DNA of 14,167 nt from Armatimonadota bacterium (GTDB taxonomy: Bacteria > Armatimonadota > Hebobacteria > GCA-020354555 > CP070648), in NCBI GenBank assembly GCA_020354555.1, contig CP070648.1:685278-699444 (forward strand). The letters are read 5' to 3'. The position numbers and the translations under genes were made by a program. The notes beneath the pieces are model-generated. The model did no database searches and was not told the origin of the DNA. It worked only from the letters and a program-made list of their open reading frames with translations. Shown here one piece after another: positions 3,819 to 14,167 of this stretch; the first letter of the stretch is position 1, and every line of letters starts with the position of its first letter.

Positions 3819-5885
3819 CTACTGCATGCGGCGCAAGGTCTCGCGGCGGATCATGGCGCCGGTCTGCAAGTTGCGCAGCTCGACGCCAACATCGCGGAGC
3901 TGCGCCCAGTTGGTGGGGGCGAGCACCGCGCCGGTTTGGGCGGTGAGCGTCTGCGCGGGAAGCTGCAGCGACCCCACTGTGCCGGCCTGGAAGTTGCGTA
4001 TCTCGATCTCGTAACGCAGGGGCGAACCCGAGCGGTTCTCGACGTTGACGCCGCTGCGGTCGGCCTTGGGCTCGAACAGCACGCCGCGTGCGGCGTCGAG
4101 GAGCTTGATGTCGATGACGCGCTGCTGACGGGGGCCGACGCGCATGATGGTGCGCACCTGAGCCGGGATGTCCTGGGCGAGGAGCAGCGAAGTCTGGTTC
4201 GTCACCAACTTGTCGAGCGTGATGCCAGCCTGGTCGGCGTCAGACGCGACTTCGAAGACGAGGCCGGGGGTGAAGGCGCGCATTCTCCTGCCGCGCGCAT
4301 TGGCGAGCTGGACGTTGAGTTTCTTGTTGCGCGCGCGGCCAAAGACGTAGACATTCGGGAAGTCGGGAGCGGGCGTGATGCCTGTGTCGGGTACGAAGAG
4401 CCCGGCATACGGGATGCGGGTCTTGGAGTCAGTGTTGATGCGGTCGCCGACGTAGAGCCTGCGGCCGGCTTCATCGCTGATCTGGGTTACGCGCGCGGGT
4501 TTGTCCACGACGACGACGGCCATCATCGCGGCCTCGCCTTCCGTCGCTTCGGTCGGCAGGTGCGGGTCGGCGGGCGTGACATCGGCGTAACTGCGGCAGA
4601 TCGTTCTCGTGGCAGAGCCCCAGGTGAGGTCGTCGGTTGTCTTGTTGATGCGCACGACTCTCGTGGTGTCTGACGCTTCGTCCTCGGCATAGGGGACGTT
4701 GTTGTCATAGATGCGGATGCGGCGCTCGTTGCCGACCTCCTCGGTCTGATACGGCCACACGCAGTGCCCCCAGCCGGGGCCGTAAATGCTGAGGAGCGGG
4801 GCGTTCTTGGAGCCGAGTTGGCCGATGAGGTCGCGGCAGCGCTCCCAGGCCTCGTTATGGTCCTGGTTGTCGAGCAGCCACTGGCGGTTGGCCATGACGC
4901 TGGCTTCGAGCTGGGCGCCCTGGTGCTCGTTGACGCTGCGGTGGACTTCGTTGACGAAGTCGTAATTCCAAGCGCGGGGCAGCCGGTGGCTGTTCCACCA
5001 TGATTCGAAAAGCGACCACGGCTGCCAGAAGAGGAAGCGCTCGGCGGACAGGGTCATGCCGAAGCAGTTCCCGCCGGAGCCGACGCGCTTGTAGGTGCTG
5101 TCATACCAAGCCTGGGCAGCCGGGAGGTGGTTGCCGCCAGCGTCCTCGACTTCATTGGCGCCGAAGTAATGGCGGAAGCACTCCCAGGGTATAGTCGCCT
5201 CGCTGAAGTTGGCGAACTTCCAGCCGTGGAGGCCGCGCCAGCCGCGGGGAGCGACGACGCGGTAGTTCAGATGATTGCCGGTGCGATCGGCGGCCGTATC
5301 CTTGAGGTACAGGTCGTAGTCGTGGGCGATGGAGACGCTCGGTATCTCACAGCCGACGCACTCGCCAAAGTCTTCGCCCCACGGCATATAGTACGTGGTG
5401 CGGGCGCTGCCGTTGAACCACACCTGGCAAGTGCTGTTCACTTCGATCCCATAGATGAGGAGCCAACTGCCGGGCGCACCGTCGCCGCTGTCGGGCCAGA
5501 CGTCGGTGATGTGCGGAGGCTTGATCTCGAAGCGCGGGCGGGTCAGGATGTCCTTGCTGAAGCGCATGCTCGCCACGCCGAGTTGGCTGGCGATGCCGGG
5601 ATCGCGGCTTGCCACGACTGCCTGCTGCATGCCCGCGGGGAGTTGGGCGAAGGCGGTGACGACTCTCTGCTTCTGCGCGGTTGACCAGCTCTGCTTCGCC
5701 ACCATGGCCTGGAGGCTCTTCTGCAGGCTGGCCGTGGACAGCTTGACGATTTTCGCGGTCGGGACTGCGCTGACCTTCGGGGCGACCTTGACTTTGGGCG
5801 CTGCGACCTGGGCTTGGGCCGTAACGAGTGACAGCACCAAGGCGAGGCCGACGAGGATGCTGAGGGGAACGCTAACCTTTCGCAT
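3819..5885 (-). CDS. Secreted 689-aa protein of unknown function (Sec signal peptide; central Trp/Cys-rich domain with a possible Cys-His-Asp/Asn core; C-terminal beta-rich region)
   Basis: The true start is the ATG at 5885 (MRKVSVPLSILVGLALVLSLVTAQA|QV, a classic signal peptide). It is preceded by RBS AAAGGAGA with a 7-nt spacer. The 234-aa Arg-rich extension in the 923-aa track ORF overlaps the upstream aldolase gene in another frame and is spurious. Motifs: GSGGNCFGMT, GWGHCVWPY, IRIYDNNVPY. Confidence 0.75.
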   Translation of the reverse strand: MRKVSVPLSILVGLALVLSLVTAQAQVAAPKVKVAPKVSAVPTAKIVKLSTASLQKSLQAMVAKQSWSTAQKQRVVTAFAQLPAGMQQAVVASRDPGIASQLGVASMRFSKDILTRPRFEIKPPHITDVWPDSGDGAPGSWLLIYGIEVNSTCQVWFNGSARTTYYMPWGEDFGECVGCEIPSVSIAHDYDLYLKDTAADRTGNHLNYRVVAPRGWRGLHGWKFANFSEATIPWECFRHYFGANEVEDAGGNHLPAAQAWYDSTYKRVGSGGNCFGMTLSAERFLFWQPWSLFESWWNSHRLPRAWNYDFVNEVHRSVNEHQGAQLEASVMANRQWLLDNQDHNEAWERCRDLIGQLGSKNAPLLSIYGPGWGHCVWPYQTEEVGNERRIRIYDNNVPYAEDEASDTTRVVRINKTTDDLTWGSATRTICRSYADVTPADPHLPTEATEGEAAMMAVVVVDKPARVTQISDEAGRRLYVGDRINTDSKTRIPYAGLFVPDTGITPAPDFPNVYVFGRARNKKLNVQLANARGRRMRAFTPGLVFEVASDADQAGITLDKLVTNQTSLLLAQDIPAQVRTIMRVGPRQQRVIDIKLLDAARGVLFEPKADRSGVNVENRSGSPLRYEIEIRNFQAGTVGSLQLPAQTLTAQTGAVLAPTNWAQLRDVGVELRNLQTGAMIRRETLRRMQ

Positions 5886-6034: not shown

Positions 6035-7087
6035 CTACTGCTTGATGAGCGCCTTGGCCTCGTCGGACATCCATGCGTACTTGTGCCACCACGGCTGGCT
6101 GGTCGCGACGGTGAGGTCTTGGATGAGCTTCATGCGCGGCACGGCAACCGCGGCGAGCGCCGCTTCGAGAGCCTTCCAGTCCGTGACCCCGGGATCGGCG
6201 AACGGGTCCTTGAAGTACGCGCGGCCGCACATGGGCCCGGCGACGAGGTCGCAGACGATGCCGTACTGCGCGGCGTACTGCGGAAAGTCCACTGCCGCGC
6301 TGAGCACGAGCAGCGGGCGATCGACGACTGCCGCCATGGCCTCGGTTGTTTTGCGCACGACCTCGGGGCTGCTGATGCGCGCGAGCTTGCCGTTGTCGTC
6401 GGCCCAGAGCATGGGCACCTGCGTCTTGTAAAAGTCGCCGTAGGGGCCGAAGTCGCGGGCGATTTTGACGAGCGCCTCGGGGAGCCGCTCGCCGATCTCG
6501 CGCTTGGACATGTCGGCGGGGGTGTAGAGGGTCTCGTTGAAGAGCGGCTTGCCGAGCTTGCGGGAGCGCTCCCAGACGCCCGTCAGCCATTCCAGGTTCC
6601 GCTCCCAGGACTCGCGGTGGGCGGGGTCCACCTTGACCAGGGTCTTGAAACCGTCCACGCGGTCGGCGACTTCCTCGGGCTGAGCGGCGAGCTGAGGGAT
6701 CTGGCCTTTGCCGTCTTTCGTGGTCAGGAACTTCGTGTCCTCGAGCCTGCCGATGAGCATAGTGTCGGCGCCGAGGAGGGCGCGGAATCCCTCGGACATG
6801 TAGGCGAGGCTGTTGAACAGCGCCGCGGCCGGGACGCCGCCGAGGACCTTGGCGAACAAACGGGAGACCTCGGTGACGTGATCGTCGGTCGCCTTGTCAG
6901 GGAAGTCCTTCTCGCTGCCGCCGGCGGCGCGGGCGGTCTGGAAGAACCGGGTGAGCAGGCGCAGCACCGAGCTGTGCTGGTCGCAGGCCAAGACATCTAT
7001 CACGCCGTTGGGGGCAAACTTCGCGAGGGTGCTGAACACCTCACGGCTGACCTCGACGCCGTCGGCGAACTCTGCGCATACCGGCAT
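6035..7087 (-). CDS. Class I aldolase of the LacD/tagatose-1,6-bisphosphate aldolase family (aldolase-type TIM barrel), 351 aa
   Basis: The true start is the ATG at 7087, with a very strong RBS GAAGGAGGG and an 8-nt spacer. The 43-aa upstream extension in the track is spurious. Motifs align with LacD. GVIDVLACDQHSS corresponds to ISALAFDQRGA. FKTLVKVDP corresponds to DVLKVEVP, which holds the Schiff-base Lys. LVLSAAVDF corresponds to IYLSAGV. GPMCGRAYF corresponds to GVLCGRATW. Confidence 0.75.
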   Translation of the reverse strand: MPVCAEFADGVEVSREVFSTLAKFAPNGVIDVLACDQHSSVLRLLTRFFQTARAAGGSEKDFPDKATDDHVTEVSRLFAKVLGGVPAAALFNSLAYMSEGFRALLGADTMLIGRLEDTKFLTTKDGKGQIPQLAAQPEEVADRVDGFKTLVKVDPAHRESWERNLEWLTGVWERSRKLGKPLFNETLYTPADMSKREIGERLPEALVKIARDFGPYGDFYKTQVPMLWADDNGKLARISSPEVVRKTTEAMAAVVDRPLLVLSAAVDFPQYAAQYGIVCDLVAGPMCGRAYFKDPFADPGVTDWKALEAALAAVAVPRMKLIQDLTVATSQPWWHKYAWMSDEAKALIKQ

Positions 7088-7387: not shown

Positions 7388-8131
7388 ATGATCCTGATAC
7401 CCCTGGGCATCGTAGTGCTGTATCTCATTTCCGGCATACGTCTCCTGTACCAGTACGAGCGCGGCGTGGTGTTCACCCTCGGCGTGTACAAATCCACGCG
7501 CGAGCCGGGCTTGCGGTTCATCTGGCCGATCTTCCAGACCATGCGCAAGGTTGACATCCGGATCAAGACCGCCGACATTCCGCGACAGGAGGTCATGACC
7601 AAGGACAACATCCCAGTGCTTGCGAACACGGTGGTGTATTTCAAGGTGGTCAAGCCGGAGGACGCGATCATCAAGATCGAGGACTACGTGTTCGCGGTAC
7701 GCCAGTACACGCAGGCGGCGCTGCGGGACGTGGTGGGCAACCACGAGCTGGACTTCGTGCTCAGCGAGCGAGAGCAGATCGGCGGGGCCATCGGCGAGAT
7801 GGTGGAACAGGAGACGGCCGACTGGGGGGTGGCGATCGAGTCGATCAAGATACAGGAAATCGAGTTGCCCGCCGAGATGAAGCGGGCCATGGCCAAGCAG
7901 GCCGAGGCGGAGCGCGAGAGGCGGGCGGTGATCATCGCGTCCGAGGGTGAGCTGAGCGCGTCGGTCAATCTGCAGCAGGCGGCGTCGAACCTGTCCAAGG
8001 CCGAGGGTGCGCTGCATCTGCGGACGCTGCAGACCCTGCGCGACATCGCCGCCGATCCGTCGGAGAAGATCATTGCCTTCCTGCCCTCCGAGGCGATCGG
8101 CGTGGCGCGGCGACTCGCATCCGGGGAATGA
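7388..8131 (+). CDS. SPFH/band-7 domain membrane protein (stomatin/prohibitin-like, QmcA/YbbK type)
   Basis: N-terminal TM MILIPLGIVVLYLISGI is followed by a typical SPFH core (ERGVVFTLGVY..., IRIKTADIPRQEVMTKDNIPVLANTVVYFKVVKPEDAI, ALRDVVGNHELDFVLSEREQI) and a coiled-coil Ala/Glu/Arg-rich segment (AEMKRAMAKQAEAERERRAVIIASEGE). RBS GAGGAGG with a 6-nt spacer. The start is the ATG at 7388, not 7295. Confidence 0.9.
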   Translation: MILIPLGIVVLYLISGIRLLYQYERGVVFTLGVYKSTREPGLRFIWPIFQTMRKVDIRIKTADIPRQEVMTKDNIPVLANTVVYFKVVKPEDAIIKIEDYVFAVRQYTQAALRDVVGNHELDFVLSEREQIGGAIGEMVEQETADWGVAIESIKIQEIELPAEMKRAMAKQAEAERERRAVIIASEGELSASVNLQQAASNLSKAEGALHLRTLQTLRDIAADPSEKIIAFLPSEAIGVARRLASGE

Positions 8132-8137
8132 AAGATT

Positions 8138-8803
8138 ATGCTCGACCGCCGCGTACGATACCTGCAACTTGCGTTCAATGAGGACGTCGCCGAGGCCGCG
8201 CGGATTGTGCCGACGCTGCCGCAGGACGAGCGCATTCTGCTGGAGGCGGGGACGCCGTACGTCAAACGGGAGGGCCTGGCGGGGATAGGCAAGATCCGGT
8301 CGCTGTGGCCGGGCGGCCTGGTAGCCGATATCAAGACGACGGATGGCGGGGTGGAGGAAGTCGAGCTGGTGGCGGGGGTCGGGGCGACTGCGGCGACGGT
8401 GATGGGGAGCTGCCCGACCGAGACGCTGGACCGGTTCATCGCCGCCTGCCACGAGTGGGGGATTGACTCGTTGGTGGACATGCTGGGGGTAACCGATCCG
8501 CTGCACGTGCTGCGCCACCTGCGGAGGCCGCCGGCGGGAGTGGTGCTCCACCTGGGGCGCGACGAGGAGAGCACCCGCGGCAAGGTCATCCAGTACCGGC
8601 ACGTCACCCGCATCCGCAGCAAGTATGACGTTGCGATTTCCGCGGCAGGTGGGGTCGGCCTCAAGGAAGCCCGCACGGCGATTTTCAACGGCGCCAACAT
8701 CGTGGTCGCAAACATCGTGGCCACGGGCAAGCCGTGGAACGGCATCCCCGCGGAGGGCGACGTGGCAGGCCTGGCCCGTCAGTTTCTGGCGACGATAGAA
8801 TGA
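8138..8803 (+). CDS. OMP-decarboxylase-suprafamily TIM-barrel protein, 3-hexulose-6-phosphate synthase / 3-keto-L-gulonate-6-P decarboxylase (HPS/KGPDC)-like
   Basis: Starts 6 nt after the SPFH stop. Motifs match KGPDC/HPS. LQLAFNED corresponds to LQVALD on beta1. ILLEAGTP corresponds to IIEVGT (metal Glu). LVADIKTTDGG corresponds to the D-x-K-x-x-D motif. VVLHLGRDEE corresponds to VYHRSRD (His). SAAGGVGLKEARTAIFNGANIVVA corresponds to the C-terminal phosphate-binding GG loop. The conserved beta1 Asp appears to be Asn. Confidence 0.75.
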   Translation: MLDRRVRYLQLAFNEDVAEAARIVPTLPQDERILLEAGTPYVKREGLAGIGKIRSLWPGGLVADIKTTDGGVEEVELVAGVGATAATVMGSCPTETLDRFIAACHEWGIDSLVDMLGVTDPLHVLRHLRRPPAGVVLHLGRDEESTRGKVIQYRHVTRIRSKYDVAISAAGGVGLKEARTAIFNGANIVVANIVATGKPWNGIPAEGDVAGLARQFLATIE

Positions 8804-10428: not shown

Positions 10429-11262
10429 CTATCCGCGGTTTCCGTTATCTCGCGCTTCGAGCGACTTGCCGGTGAGCTCGATGAACACGTCCTCGAGAGT
10501 CGGCGCGGGGCGGTCGTCGCTGCGCACGCGGGCCTTGAGTTCGTCGGGCGTGCCTTCCGCGACGATCTTGCCGTCGGCCATGATTCCCACGCGGTGACAC
10601 AGGCGGTCCGCCTCCTCCATATCGTGGGTGGTAAACAGCATGGTTGCGTCGTGATCCCGTAGGACCGAGCGCAGGAAGCCATGCACGTCGCGTTTGGACT
10701 GCGGGTCGAGCCCGGTCGTCGGCTCGTCGAGGAGCAGCAAGACGGGCGAGGTGAACAGGCCGCGGGTGATCGCCACCTTCTGCTGCTGTCCGCGCGACAG
10801 GTTCTCAACGGAATCGTGGATGCGGTCGATGGGGAAGCCCATCACCTCAAGCATCGCTGTCGCCGTCTTCGCCGCCTCGCGGGGGTCCATGCCGTAGAGG
10901 CGCGCGGCGTAGAGCAAGTTCTCTATCGCCGAGAGTTTCTTGAAGAATGATGCTTCGACTGAGACGCGGTTGACGAGCTTGCGCACCGCGGCAGCCTCGC
11001 GCACCACGTCACGGCCGAACACGCTGGCGGCGCCCGCGTCGGGAAGCAGAAGTGTCGCGACAATGCGGACGAGCGTGGACTTGCCGGAACCGTTGGGCCC
11101 GAGCAGGCCGTAGATCTCGCCGCGGCGCACCTGCAGACTGACGGATGACAGTGCGGTGATCGTGCGCCACTTCTTCCCGTCGCCGTCGCCTTGCGCGCGA
11201 CCACGTTTCTGTCTGAATGACTTGGTGACGCCTTGCAGCGTCAACGGCAATGCTTCATGCAT
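10429..11262 (-). CDS. ABC transporter ATP-binding protein
   Basis: Walker [11 protein letters not shown]-loop, ABC signature LSRGQQQKV, Walker B LLLLDEP, and H-loop TTHDM. RBS GGAGG with a 9-nt spacer before the ATG at 11262. Confidence 0.9.
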
Positions 11263-11368
11263 GTGTTCGGACCTCCGGAATGCGAGCGCCGGGAAGCAAC
11301 AGAGCCGCCGGCCTGGAATGACCCGCGGCTCATGAAGAGGGAAGCGATTGCTGAAGTGGGTGTTACGA

Positions 11369-11399
11369 GAACCGCGGGCTTGATCGGCGCCCGCGGTTC
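11369..11399. other. Perfect 11-bp GC-rich hairpin (gaaccgcgggc / gcccgcggttc, 9-nt loop) inside the 315-bp non-coding gap between the fusion gene and the ABC operon
   Basis: Positions 11369-11379 pair exactly with 11389-11399. There is no flanking U/T tract on either strand. It could be a terminator for the upstream gene, an attenuator or leader element of the ABC operon, or a protein-binding palindrome. Confidence 0.35.
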
Positions 11400-11577
11400 C
11401 TCACCGATTCGAGATAGGCCGGTGCGGAACGTGCATACGAGAGCGCGTGCGCCGTGTCACGCCGAGAGGACGGTATGGAACTCGATAGGATTGCGTACGC
11501 GCATGGTTGTCTCGCTGCTCGCCTCGTTCGTGCTTGAGGTTACGACGATCGAATAGTAGCGAGAAGCCGCAGGCTTG

Positions 11578-14167
11578 TCAAGATCCAAACCGAGGCGGCA
11601 ACGCGATTTCGACCAGAACAGTATCCACGTCGCGGTCGGCACCGACGGCGAGGATGGCTCCGGCTTCGTCGACGGCGACGCCGGCGCCGCCGTAAGTGCG
11701 GCCGGTCCACGGGCCGTGCGCAATCTGGCCGACCAGATCCACGCCGACGACGGGCGCGCCGATCGCGGTTGCGGCGGCGGCGACGGTATCGTGCAGCCGC
11801 TGGTGATGCTGCGGCCAGGCCTCTTCCCGTTCCGCCCACCCGTAGGGGACGATGACGAGCTGCGGCCGGCATCGGCGCATGGCGCCAAGGATGTCCTCGC
11901 GAAAGGTATCGGCGCAGATGAGCATCCCGATGCGGCCGAGGCGGGTCTCGACGGCGGCGATATCCTCGATGATCCCCTTGCTGTAGGGCGGTTCCATGAG
12001 CCAGTCCAAAGTGTTGATCTTGCGATGCTTGAGGAGCAGTGTGCCGTCGGAGTCGATGAGCGCGGCCGCGTCGTAGAGCTTGTCGCCGTCTTTCTCCGCG
12101 AGGCCGATGGCGAGCATCAGGCCGTACTCACGGGCGAGCGCACCGAGGCGCTCCGTGTCCTCGCCGGGGATGGCGTGTCCGCGCTTGTGCGCCTCGGGGT
12201 TGACCCAGCCGAGCAGAGACATCTCGGGGAAGCACGCGATATCGGCCCGTTGCTCGCGCGCGCGGGCGAGGGCGCGCTCGATGCGGGCGTAGTTGCCGCT
12301 CTTGTCGCCGTCGAGGCAGAGGATCTGACACATCGCCGCACGCAGGGTCATTGCTGTCTCGCGTCCAGGGGTCGTTGACTCGGTTTTCCCGCGGGCGAGG
12401 TATGGTTCCTGCCGCGCCGCGAATTGCCCACGCACGCTTCCGTCCGCGCCACGGATGACCGCCGCCGCCTCGCCCGGGAAGTCTTTCTGGTCGAGGCGGA
12501 GGGCGCCTTCCCGATCGGCGAAGGCGACGGTAACGATCTCGTCGCCGCGGTGCAGCCGTACGCCGGGGCATCGGCCCGGCAGGGCCTCGACTTCCACTAC
12601 TGCCGACGGCTCGCCTTCCCGCGCCACGGCGATGACGGTGATGAAGTCCGCGGTGCGAGCAGGCTCTGCGGTTTCGACGGTGAGATGCCATTCGGGCACG
12701 GTCTTGCCGGTCTCGGGTTCGAGCGGATAGCGGTCGGTCTGGGTGAAGCGGACTTTGGCCGGCGCGACGAAGCTGATGCGCGCCCGGGCATTGCCGTGCC
12801 GCAGCAGCACGGTGTTGTCGCGCTCGGATATCTCAAACGGGGAGCGCCCGTGCGCCAGCCACTGCACGGCAACCGGTTCGTCCGCGACCACGCGATCGTG
12901 GATGACGAAGACATCCGGGCGCACGAACATGATGCGGCGCGCGACCTCCCGCGCGTTGTCGTAGGCGGCGCCCGCATCGCCGGAGGTGTATGTGAAGCGC
13001 CCGTCGTGCCGGAAGGCAGTGATATTGCCCACCGCATTCGCGCTGCGCGACTGGCCTTCGCCGTTGACGAGGATGCAGTTGTGACTGAGCGTCGCCCAGT
13101 AGTACTGGCGGCAGAACTCGCTGCCGTACCACGGGCGGATGCCCGTGTTGACGAGCAGCGGTTCCCCATAGGCAGCAAGGACGATAGCATTCTGGTCGGC
13201 GTGGGCGTGGCTGATGTTGCCCATCGCACTGCTGCGGAACATGAGCTGGACGTCATCATCCGGATTGGCGAGATCGGTGTGCATCGCGACCCAGCCGGTG
13301 CCGCGGAAGAGCCTGGCGGTGGGCAAGTCGTCCGGCGACTTGGCCTCCGCCGGCGGTCGGGCGGCGCGCAGGAAGCCGATGGGCGTGTCCTCGTGTTCTG
13401 CCGCACCCCACGCTTCCGCGTACCACTTCCAGTACGGGTTGCCCACGGCATCGGCGAAGTAGTTGACGACTCGGCCCGCGCTGGACGGGGCGCCGCGCTC
13501 CCCGTAGTCGCCAAAGCCGCTGATCGGCGAACGCGGAGCGGCGCAATACAATGGGAAGTCGCCGACCTTGCTGAAGAACGGCTTCCGCGTGCCGTCAATG
13601 CCGGTCGCGACGTTGAGCGCGTCGAGCCACCACGTGACGCGGTTGATGTAGCTGTTCCAGTAGGCGATCCCCTCGGACCATCCGCCGTCGCTATCGGACC
13701 AGATGGGGTACCAGCCCCAGAAGATGGCGATGGCGTACTCGAGCCAGCGATCGGCCTCTTCGATCTCGTCGTGGTACGCGATCGCCGCCTCGCCGAGGAA
13801 GTGCCACATGCGGCCGCCGTGGCTGTCGTAGGCGCGCTGCTCGTAGGGGCGCCCGTGGAGTCGCCGGTAGGCCTCCTCGCCGCGGGCGCGAATCATGTCG
13901 CGCAGGACGCGGCGGTCGTCGTCGCTCAGCGCGTCGTGGATCCAGTCGTAGGCGCGCGAGGTGATATGGAGAATCGGCATGCCCGCCTCGTCGTTGACCT
14001 TGATGCTCGTGCTGCCCGCAGGATCCCACGACGCGATATGCAGCAACCACTCGCGAACGCGCTGCGCGTACTTCTTCTCGCCGCTGATGAGGTAGGCAAA
14101 CGCCATCGTCTCGATCCCGTTACACGCCTTGACCACTGCGCCGTAGTTGCGTCGCCACTCCGCGGCA
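11578..14167 (-). CDS. Bifunctional-looking fusion of an N-terminal heparinase II/III-like domain and a C-terminal carbon-nitrogen hydrolase (nitrilase-superfamily) domain; the 5' end runs past the window edge
   Basis: One uninterrupted minus-strand frame. The N-terminal part contains DGGWSEGIAYWNSY and the Hepar_II_III hallmark SSAMGNISHAHADQNAIVLAAYGEPLLVNTG (compare GHGHADALSFEL..GEPLLVDSG). The C-terminal 257 aa have the CN-hydrolase Glu-Lys-Cys triad context: MCQILCLDGD...ACFPEMSL (Glu), TLLLKHRKINT (Lys), GMLICADTF (Cys). The track's GTG 'start' at 14136 is not preceded by a stop, and the frame stays open to 14167, so the true N-terminus is outside the window. Confidence 0.8.
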   Translation of the reverse strand, partial: AAEWRRNYGAVVKACNGIETMAFAYLISGEKKYAQRVREWLLHIASWDPAGSTSIKVNDEAGMPILHITSRAYDWIHDALSDDDRRVLRDMIRARGEEAYRRLHGRPYEQRAYDSHGGRMWHFLGEAAIAYHDEIEEADRWLEYAIAIFWGWYPIWSDSDGGWSEGIAYWNSYINRVTWWLDALNVATGIDGTRKPFFSKVGDFPLYCAAPRSPISGFGDYGERGAPSSAGRVVNYFADAVGNPYWKWYAEAWGAAEHEDTPIGFLRAARPPAEAKSPDDLPTARLFRGTGWVAMHTDLANPDDDVQLMFRSSAMGNISHAHADQNAIVLAAYGEPLLVNTGIRPWYGSEFCRQYYWATLSHNCILVNGEGQSRSANAVGNITAFRHDGRFTYTSGDAGAAYDNAREVARRIMFVRPDVFVIHDRVVADEPVAVQWLAHGRSPFEISERDNTVLLRHGNARARISFVAPAKVRFTQTDRYPLEPETGKTVPEWHLTVETAEPARTADFITVIAVAREGEPSAVVEVEALPGRCPGVRLHRGDEIVTVAFADREGALRLDQKDFPGEAAAVIRGADGSVRGQFAARQEPYLARGKTESTTPGRETAMTLRAAMCQILCLDGDKSGNYARIERALARAREQRADIACFPEMSLLGWVNPEAHKRGHAIPGEDTERLGALAREYGLMLAIGLAEKDGDKLYDAAALIDSDGTLLLKHRKINTLDWLMEPPYSKGIIEDIAAVETRLGRIGMLICADTFREDILGAMRRCRPQLVIVPYGWAEREEAWPQHHQRLHDTVAAAATAIGAPVVGVDLVGQIAHGPWTGRTYGGAGVAVDEAGAILAVGADRDVDTVLVEIALPPRFGS

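Follow-up and report, generated by a model that had tools for sequence, protein, structure and literature searches.

The stretch of DNA analyzed here (14,167 nucleotides, referred to as the window) corresponds to positions 685,278 to 699,444 of contig CP070648.1, from an Armatimonadota bacterium. One end of the window is occupied by a single open reading frame (ORF) on the minus strand (11578..>14167), in which a polysaccharide lyase-like region is followed by a hydrolase of the nitrilase superfamily (CN hydrolase). Read from position 14166 to the TGA at 11580..11578, the frame contains 862 sense codons and no internal stop. A preliminary description of the window had placed heparinase-like and CN-hydrolase modules in one uninterrupted frame, and this was confirmed. 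The 862-residue product that it reported is a real frame but only a fragment: the 5′ end is cut by the end of the window and of the record, and full-length homologs carry approximately 225 additional N-terminal residues, including a signal-peptide-like start. The program-made ORF list begins this ORF at an internal GTG (14136) owing to its ORF definition. The translation is identical to GenBank entry UCH35305.1, labeled [quoted passage not shown] where MAG denotes a metagenome-assembled genome. This protein forms a singleton cluster among approximately 15 billion proteins. It is recorded on a 4,875,825-bp contig, a size from which we take the assembly to be probably a long-read MAG. A Pfam search of the frame returned three domains, all scoring far above their gathering thresholds.

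Two of the three domains belong to the lyase portion. DUF4962 (DSE-like_N), the (α/α) toroid part of a lyase of the polysaccharide lyase family 15 (PL15) type, spans 13408..14130 on the minus strand (residues 13-253) with 96.1 bits against a cut-off of 28.7. The match covers profile positions 210-448 of 476, and the first ~210 profile positions fall outside the window. Hepar_II_III_C follows at 12637..13323 (minus strand, residues 282-510; 83 bits against a cut-off of 24), in the domain order typical of PL15-type lyases, and homology to stand-alone lyases extends to about residue 586 (12409). The preliminary description had called this half heparinase II/III-like, with Hepar_II_III_N as its N-terminal domain. 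The general assignment stands; the N-terminal domain is DUF4962 by Pfam. In apparently full-length lyase homologs, a crude hydropathy test detected a signal-peptide-like hydrophobic N-terminus in 84 of 100.

Among solved structures, the best matches to the window protein were the oligo-alginate exo-lyase Atu3025 (3A0O), at E 3e-66 over residues 3-440, and the exolytic heparinase BIexoHep (6LJA), at E 2.4e-38. PL15 enzymes combine a signal peptide, DUF4962, and a heparinase II/III domain, and they fold into an (α/α)6 toroid plus a β-sheet domain; in Atu3025, His311 and Tyr365 serve as base and acid, and His531 is also important (PMC7904915, PMC11921355). In HMMER alignments, His116 (13819-13821) and Tyr169 (13660-13662) of the window protein align with catalytic His311 and Tyr365 of Atu3025, and His320 (13207-13209) aligns with His531. 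All three residues are invariant in nine close homologs. The window protein thus shares DUF4962, the heparinase II/III C-terminal domain, and the catalytic residues with Atu3025 (3A0O/3AFL) and the PL15_2 enzyme BIexoHep (6LJA/6LJL), although identity is only about 30-35%. Based on these matches, the first 590 residues belong to PL15. What sets the window protein apart is its CN-hydrolase module, which is absent from the characterized PL15 enzymes and from the approximately 270 homologs inspected.

The C-terminal 257 residues (11581..12351, minus strand) form a complete CN_hydrolase module. The Pfam match (11602-12342, residues 609-855) scored 106.1 bits against a cut-off of 23.2 and covers profile positions 1-247 of 256. 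The catalytic triad consists of Glu648 (12223-12225, in CFPE), Lys716 (12019-12021, in HRK), and Cys751 (11914-11916, in ICAD), and these columns are invariant across 16 family members. The earlier identification of a CN hydrolase with a Glu-Lys-Cys triad is therefore well founded. No characterized branch of the superfamily was matched by six NCBIfam equivalogs, which cover nitrilase, N-carbamoylputrescine amidase, deaminated-glutathione amidase, formamidase, and NAD+ synthase: scores were 18-49 bits against cut-offs of 406-503, the highest being 49 bits against a cut-off of 503. The best solved relative, mouse Nit2 (2W1V), was found at only E 1e-11. The module has a full-length CN domain and the triad in common with Nit2/omega-amidase, N-carbamoylputrescine amidase, and the aliphatic amidases. 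Unlike these branches, however, its subfamily is uncharacterized, and most members have signal-peptide-like N-termini, which is unusual for the superfamily. By the same crude hydropathy test, 73 of the 120 CN-hydrolase homologs listed (P0121-P0240) are extended at the N-terminus by 30-50 residues that include a strongly hydrophobic stretch. The subfamily thus seems, from its sequences, to be mostly exported. Some of the extended homologs, such as P0125, hold a cysteine that could be a lipoprotein site.

The same CN-hydrolase subfamily includes other N-terminal fusions. P0374 joins Peptidase_S41 to CN_hydrolase with no methionine at the joint. Another member, P0331, consists of a signal peptide, an unknown domain of 366 residues, and CN_hydrolase, with a methionine near the joint. 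In addition, a CN hydrolase 50% identical to the bacterial-type module of the window is encoded on a contig labeled "Promethearchaeota archaeon," an Asgard MAG (L032, JBHLOF010000104.1, 4664-5416). Its presence there could reflect bin contamination or horizontal transfer.

The lyase and CN-hydrolase modules are separated by a joint of 17 codons, Tyr589-Ala605 (YLARGKTESTTPGRETA; 12352..12402, minus strand). Immediately after it lies the internal ATG at 12351..12349 to which the preliminary description had drawn attention. This codon, Met606 (MTLRAAMCQIL), aligns with the start methionine of the closest stand-alone CN hydrolases (MTVRAAMCQIL in P0121). As had been reported, no recognizable Shine-Dalgarno sequence precedes it; upstream there is only a 3-nt GAG at -9..-7. 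The accompanying statement that every other gene in the window has a strong GGAGG site proved too broad. GGAG(G) was found at six of nine other likely starts; it is missing at the OMP-decarboxylase-like start at 8138, and two membrane-protein starts are unclear.

The base composition of the joint differs from that of its surroundings. At the three codon positions, the GC content of the joint is 0.63/0.68/0.58, compared with 0.66/0.50/0.87 and 0.72/0.47/0.86 in the two modules. GC at third codon positions (GC3) in the joint is 0.58-0.65 in frame 0 and, by hand count, about 0.59 in the +2 frame, and the composition is non-coding-like in all three frames. A GC3 value as low as that of the joint occurs in only 4% of the 17-codon windows of the ORF. 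We also considered programmed frameshifting at a G_GGA_AAA heptamer (~12391-12385). The heptamer has a slippery pattern only when read in the +2 frame; the lyase is not translated in that frame, and this candidate was rejected.

The nearest relative of the locus was found on a JGI metagenome contig of 1,436 bp from an independent sample (Ga0326327_1012394, referred to as L004). It encodes P0121, which is 77% identical to the CN module of the window and is the closest among the matches listed. Upstream of P0121 lies the 3′ end of a lyase gene, of which the last 30 residues, ending in FSGEACALICAADRKVRAQFRAMEGD before the stop, are present. This tail is identical to that of the window protein (FPGEAAAVIRGADGSVRGQFAARQEP) at 13 of 24 positions (BLASTP, E 2e-6). 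The two loci share the order of lyase then CN hydrolase, and the CN-hydrolase start methionine of L004 aligns exactly with Met606 of the window. In L004, however, the lyase gene ends with a TGA that sits at the Tyr589 TAC of the window (12402-12400); beyond the stop come 116 nt of spacer with AGGAG at its end, and then MTVRAAMCQIL. The gene downstream of the CN hydrolase also differs and is not an ABC transporter gene.

These comparisons point to two separate genes as the ancestral state. Given the separate genes of L004 and the non-coding composition of the joint, the 17 codons appear to be a former intergenic spacer. We compared the junctions codon-wise and with BLASTP; a MAFFT alignment of the DNA was misleading upstream of the ATG. 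An alignment of the joint of the window with the spacer of L004, meant to show which mutation removed the stop, reached a local score of 13, with a mean of 13.5 for shuffled sequences. By eye, a 10-nt deletion of the AGGAG site was apparent; we do not claim it, because the alignment of joint and spacer was no better than that of shuffled sequences.

We then examined how widely the two modules occur together. The whole ORF and the CN half were used as queries in a word-indexed search of 5.8e9 proteins. All 119 closest whole-ORF homologs listed (700-1,080 residues) contain DUF4962 and Hepar_II_III_C and lack CN_hydrolase. They align to only the first 57-68% of the query and end close to window residue 590, at most a few residues away. 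Conversely, each of the 120 closest CN-half homologs listed is a stand-alone protein, 233-340 residues long, with no lyase domain. The CN-half search did not list UCH35305.1 itself (P0001), despite 100% identity; long multi-domain proteins can be missed by word-indexed searches, and an exhaustive search of representatives was therefore needed. In a phmmer search of 1.84e9 cluster representatives, none of the best 150 of 7,192 matches inspected covered both halves, at a detection limit below which distant fusions with a total score under ~250 bits would escape. One candidate in this list, P0349, had a long C-terminal extension. The extension is a CBM_4_9 domain, so the lyase family tolerates C-terminal extensions.

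Genomes and metagenomes gave the same result. We compared both halves by tblastn with the flanks of 27 loci in GTDB species genomes that hold a CN-hydrolase relative, and we queried JGI metagenomes with a sequence that crosses the joint, which yielded 15 contigs. Neither a lyase homolog in the flanks nor a joint-spanning match was found at these loci. No lyase adjoins the CN hydrolase in any of these 42 loci, and no CN hydrolase was found downstream of the four closest lyase homologs, where other genes are present. Adjacency of the two genes was seen in the window and L004 only and is lineage-specific. The neighbors of the CN hydrolase showed no consistent theme; GH5, BNR, MBL-fold, PGK/TIM, nitroreductase, and GH123 genes were all seen. 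We found nothing in the literature on lyase-CN-hydrolase fusions or on uronamide amidases. The lyase plus CN-hydrolase architecture is thus unprecedented in the databases searched, in agreement with the earlier remark that it is not a described one. The same architecture was found in no other genome, and these searches accordingly contain no conserved family of such fusions.

In our estimate, there is about an even chance that the frame is a genuine genomic fusion, in which two co-directional neighboring genes were joined by loss of the first gene's stop codon. The first gene would have encoded an exo-lyase-like enzyme of PL15 destined for export (signal peptide, DUF4962, and heparinase II/III C-terminal domain), and the second a stand-alone amidohydrolase of the nitrilase superfamily. 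With the stop lost, the former spacer would be read as 17 codons, yielding a single frame. No special mechanism is needed for this step, since the chance that a 17-codon spacer is stop-free and in frame once the stop is lost is roughly 0.2 at this GC content. If the deposited sequence is correct, the product would be one polypeptide of about 1,085 residues, and the amidohydrolase, which has no leader of its own, would be exported by way of the lyase signal peptide to the compartment in which most of its subfamily seem to act. The signal-peptide-like N-termini of many CN-hydrolase and lyase homologs make export of the fused amidohydrolase topologically plausible. The quality of the surrounding sequence is consistent with a genuine fusion: seven other Pfam-recognizable genes in the window, covering ~8.7 kb, have full-length domain matches and no visible frameshift, which indicates a low local error rate. 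The absence of a GGAG-type site before Met606, the other N-terminal fusions of the CN-hydrolase subfamily such as P0374, and the C-terminal extension of P0349 also speak for a genuine fusion. The continuous frame, the two catalytically intact modules, the separate genes of L004, and the formerly intergenic nature of the joint are observed; loss of the stop in the organism itself, synthesis and export of a fused protein, and any substrate are inferred.

Several observations weigh against a genuine fusion, and the preliminary description's view that a translational fusion is the simplest reading does not hold up well against them. It rests on one sequence: the fused architecture is a singleton, seen once, and the nearest relative keeps two genes. 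Met606 corresponds to the start of stand-alone proteins, and the joint looks formerly intergenic. A retained start methionine and a joint without coding composition imply that any real fusion would be very recent and untried by selection. The closest CN-hydrolase homologs (P0121-P0124 and P0126) lack a signal peptide, and joining the enzyme to an exported protein would therefore move it to another compartment. Finally, the joint contains four runs of three or four identical bases (CCC, GGG, AAAA, and CCCC), and deleting one base anywhere within it would give a lyase gene ending in ...ARQQ-TGA that overlaps the ATG of the CN hydrolase (caATGAcc). An ATGA overlap is the commonest natural gene overlap and needs no Shine-Dalgarno sequence.

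The last of these points leads to an artifact in the consensus sequence, which we regard as a substantial possibility while stopping short of calling it probable. In this case, two real genes would have been merged by an error of base calling, polishing, or assembly that removed the lyase stop through a 1-nt insertion, a 2-nt deletion, or a wrongly called stop codon. The organism would then most naturally have a lyase gene ending in ...ARQQ-TGA that overlaps the CN-hydrolase ATG by 4 nt, with translational coupling of the two genes. In the +2 frame, the A after the ATG does complete a TGA, and no stop interrupts this frame upstream as far as the lyase tail. The CN-hydrolase gene of L004 also begins with ATGA; the A simply belongs to an ancestral threonine codon. 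The missing Shine-Dalgarno sequence is what would be expected of a coupled ATGA pair; the OMP-decarboxylase-like start at 8138, 6 nt past the stop of the SPFH gene, likewise has none. The singleton status of the sequence and the separate genes of L004 fit an artifact, and the chromosome-size contig implies long reads, whose usual errors are homopolymer indels. Yet the usual long-read error is a deletion, and restoring a deleted base would leave the lyase frame open for ~85 codons into the CN-hydrolase gene, which is implausible. The non-coding composition of the joint in all three frames is also unlike the long-standing coding tail that an ATGA overlap requires, which favors substitution or deletion of the stop codon over a simple indel. 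Substitution errors at a stop codon are in turn rare in polished consensus sequences, which speaks against a miscalled stop, and the ~8.7 kb of neighboring recognizable genes contain no frameshifts. Overall, the fused architecture is indistinguishable from a one-base consensus error; stop loss in the organism and an error in the assembly consensus explain the data about equally well. A cruder artifact, a chimeric assembly that joined two unrelated regions at ~12350-12410, would suit a MAG with a singleton architecture. However, the GC content and its distribution over codon positions are equal on both sides, and the order of lyase tail then CN hydrolase recurs on an independent contig from another sample. 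This common gene order makes a chimera very unlikely, and we attach almost no probability to it.

The continuous frame could also be real while the CN hydrolase is made mainly, or additionally, as a separate cytoplasmic protein of ~28 kDa initiated at Met606. On this reading, the stop would have been lost recently and almost neutrally, possibly only in a strain that the MAG consensus captured, and the long product would be a by-product that is minor or has no function. The ancestral start codon has been kept exactly, the closest homologs are leaderless stand-alone proteins, the joint bears no sign of selection as a linker, and a weak GAG lies at -9..-7. Still, most genes of the window and the L004 ortholog have a GGAG-type site and Met606 does not, so independent initiation is not favored. 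Moreover, ribosomes reading through from the lyase would occlude an internal start. We consider internal initiation unlikely.

With a genuine fusion as the reading to which we return, the activities of its two parts can be predicted from their families. The PL15 module would remove terminal units of a uronate-containing glycan by His/Tyr β-elimination, and the CN module would hydrolyze a non-peptide, amide-type C-N bond through a thioester at Cys751. Between them would lie a flexible joint of 17-20 residues that selection has not shaped. The idea that the modules jointly process an amide-bearing glycan, put forward in the preliminary description, is speculation, for which the only support is the adjacency of the genes in the window and L004. 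A more specific version holds that the fusion is real and selected: an exported bifunctional enzyme whose CN module strips an amide or N-acyl group from a uronic-acid glycan (for example, uronamide to uronate), freeing the C-6 carboxylate for β-elimination by the PL15 module. We give this version only a slim chance. If true, the enzyme would be the first in the nitrilase superfamily to act on glycans, and a large, mostly secreted, uncharacterized CN-hydrolase clade would gain a function.

Fusions of a CN hydrolase with an unrelated enzyme in one chain are known from NitFhit (1EMS) and glutamine-dependent NAD+ synthetase. Each of these has its nitrilase domain at the N-terminus and is conserved in many species, with partners coupled in function as enzymes of a linked pathway. 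In contrast, the CN domain of the window ORF is C-terminal, its partner is a glycan lyase, and the combination was seen once. Each module is an ordinary representative of a known family, and we see no indication of a new type of system. A real joint would represent a "Rosetta-stone" fusion that, together with the adjacency in L004, would tie an uncharacterized, apparently mostly secreted nitrilase branch to the degradation of acidic polysaccharides. It would then also offer a lead for substrate discovery, for example among uronic acids with amide substituents. Should the joint instead be an error, the locus illustrates how a single consensus base in a MAG can create a "novel architecture" that enters protein databases (UCH35305.1).

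The preliminary description had further suggested a functional link between the ORF and the ABC-2 exporter encoded downstream on the same strand. The stop of the ORF and the start of the ABC ATPase gene (11262, with a GGAGG site) are separated by 315 nt (11263-11577, minus strand), an unusually long gap with a lower GC content (0.62). At its head, overlapping the ORF stop, lies a promoter-like, sigma-70-like sequence, TTGACA-17-TACTAT (11553..11581, minus strand), identified by consensus match only. No intrinsic terminator was found in 11100-12600, and a search of the whole window against Rfam returned no match. The arrangement suggests that the ABC-2 transporter genes are transcribed separately, and the 315-nt gap may be a long 5′ leader of their operon. 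Only 4 of the 27 genome loci have an ABC ATPase gene in the vicinity of the CN hydrolase, and its position and orientation vary among them. Together with the different downstream gene of L004, the long gap, and the promoter-like site, this leaves the proposed link unsupported.

The remainder of the window contains several further genes. Two on the minus strand, both with good Shine-Dalgarno sequences, encode a 688-residue protein with a signal-peptide-like start (MRKVSVPLSILVGLALVLSLVTAQA; 3819-5885) and a 350-residue protein (6035-7087). Neither product had a Pfam match or a sequence match to any solved structure. On the plus strand, an SPFH/Band-7 gene (7388-8131) and an OMP-decarboxylase/HUMPS-family gene (8138-8803) lie 6 nt apart in this order, and the second has no ribosome-binding site. 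The two look like a translationally coupled pair, and as such they make an odd functional pairing.

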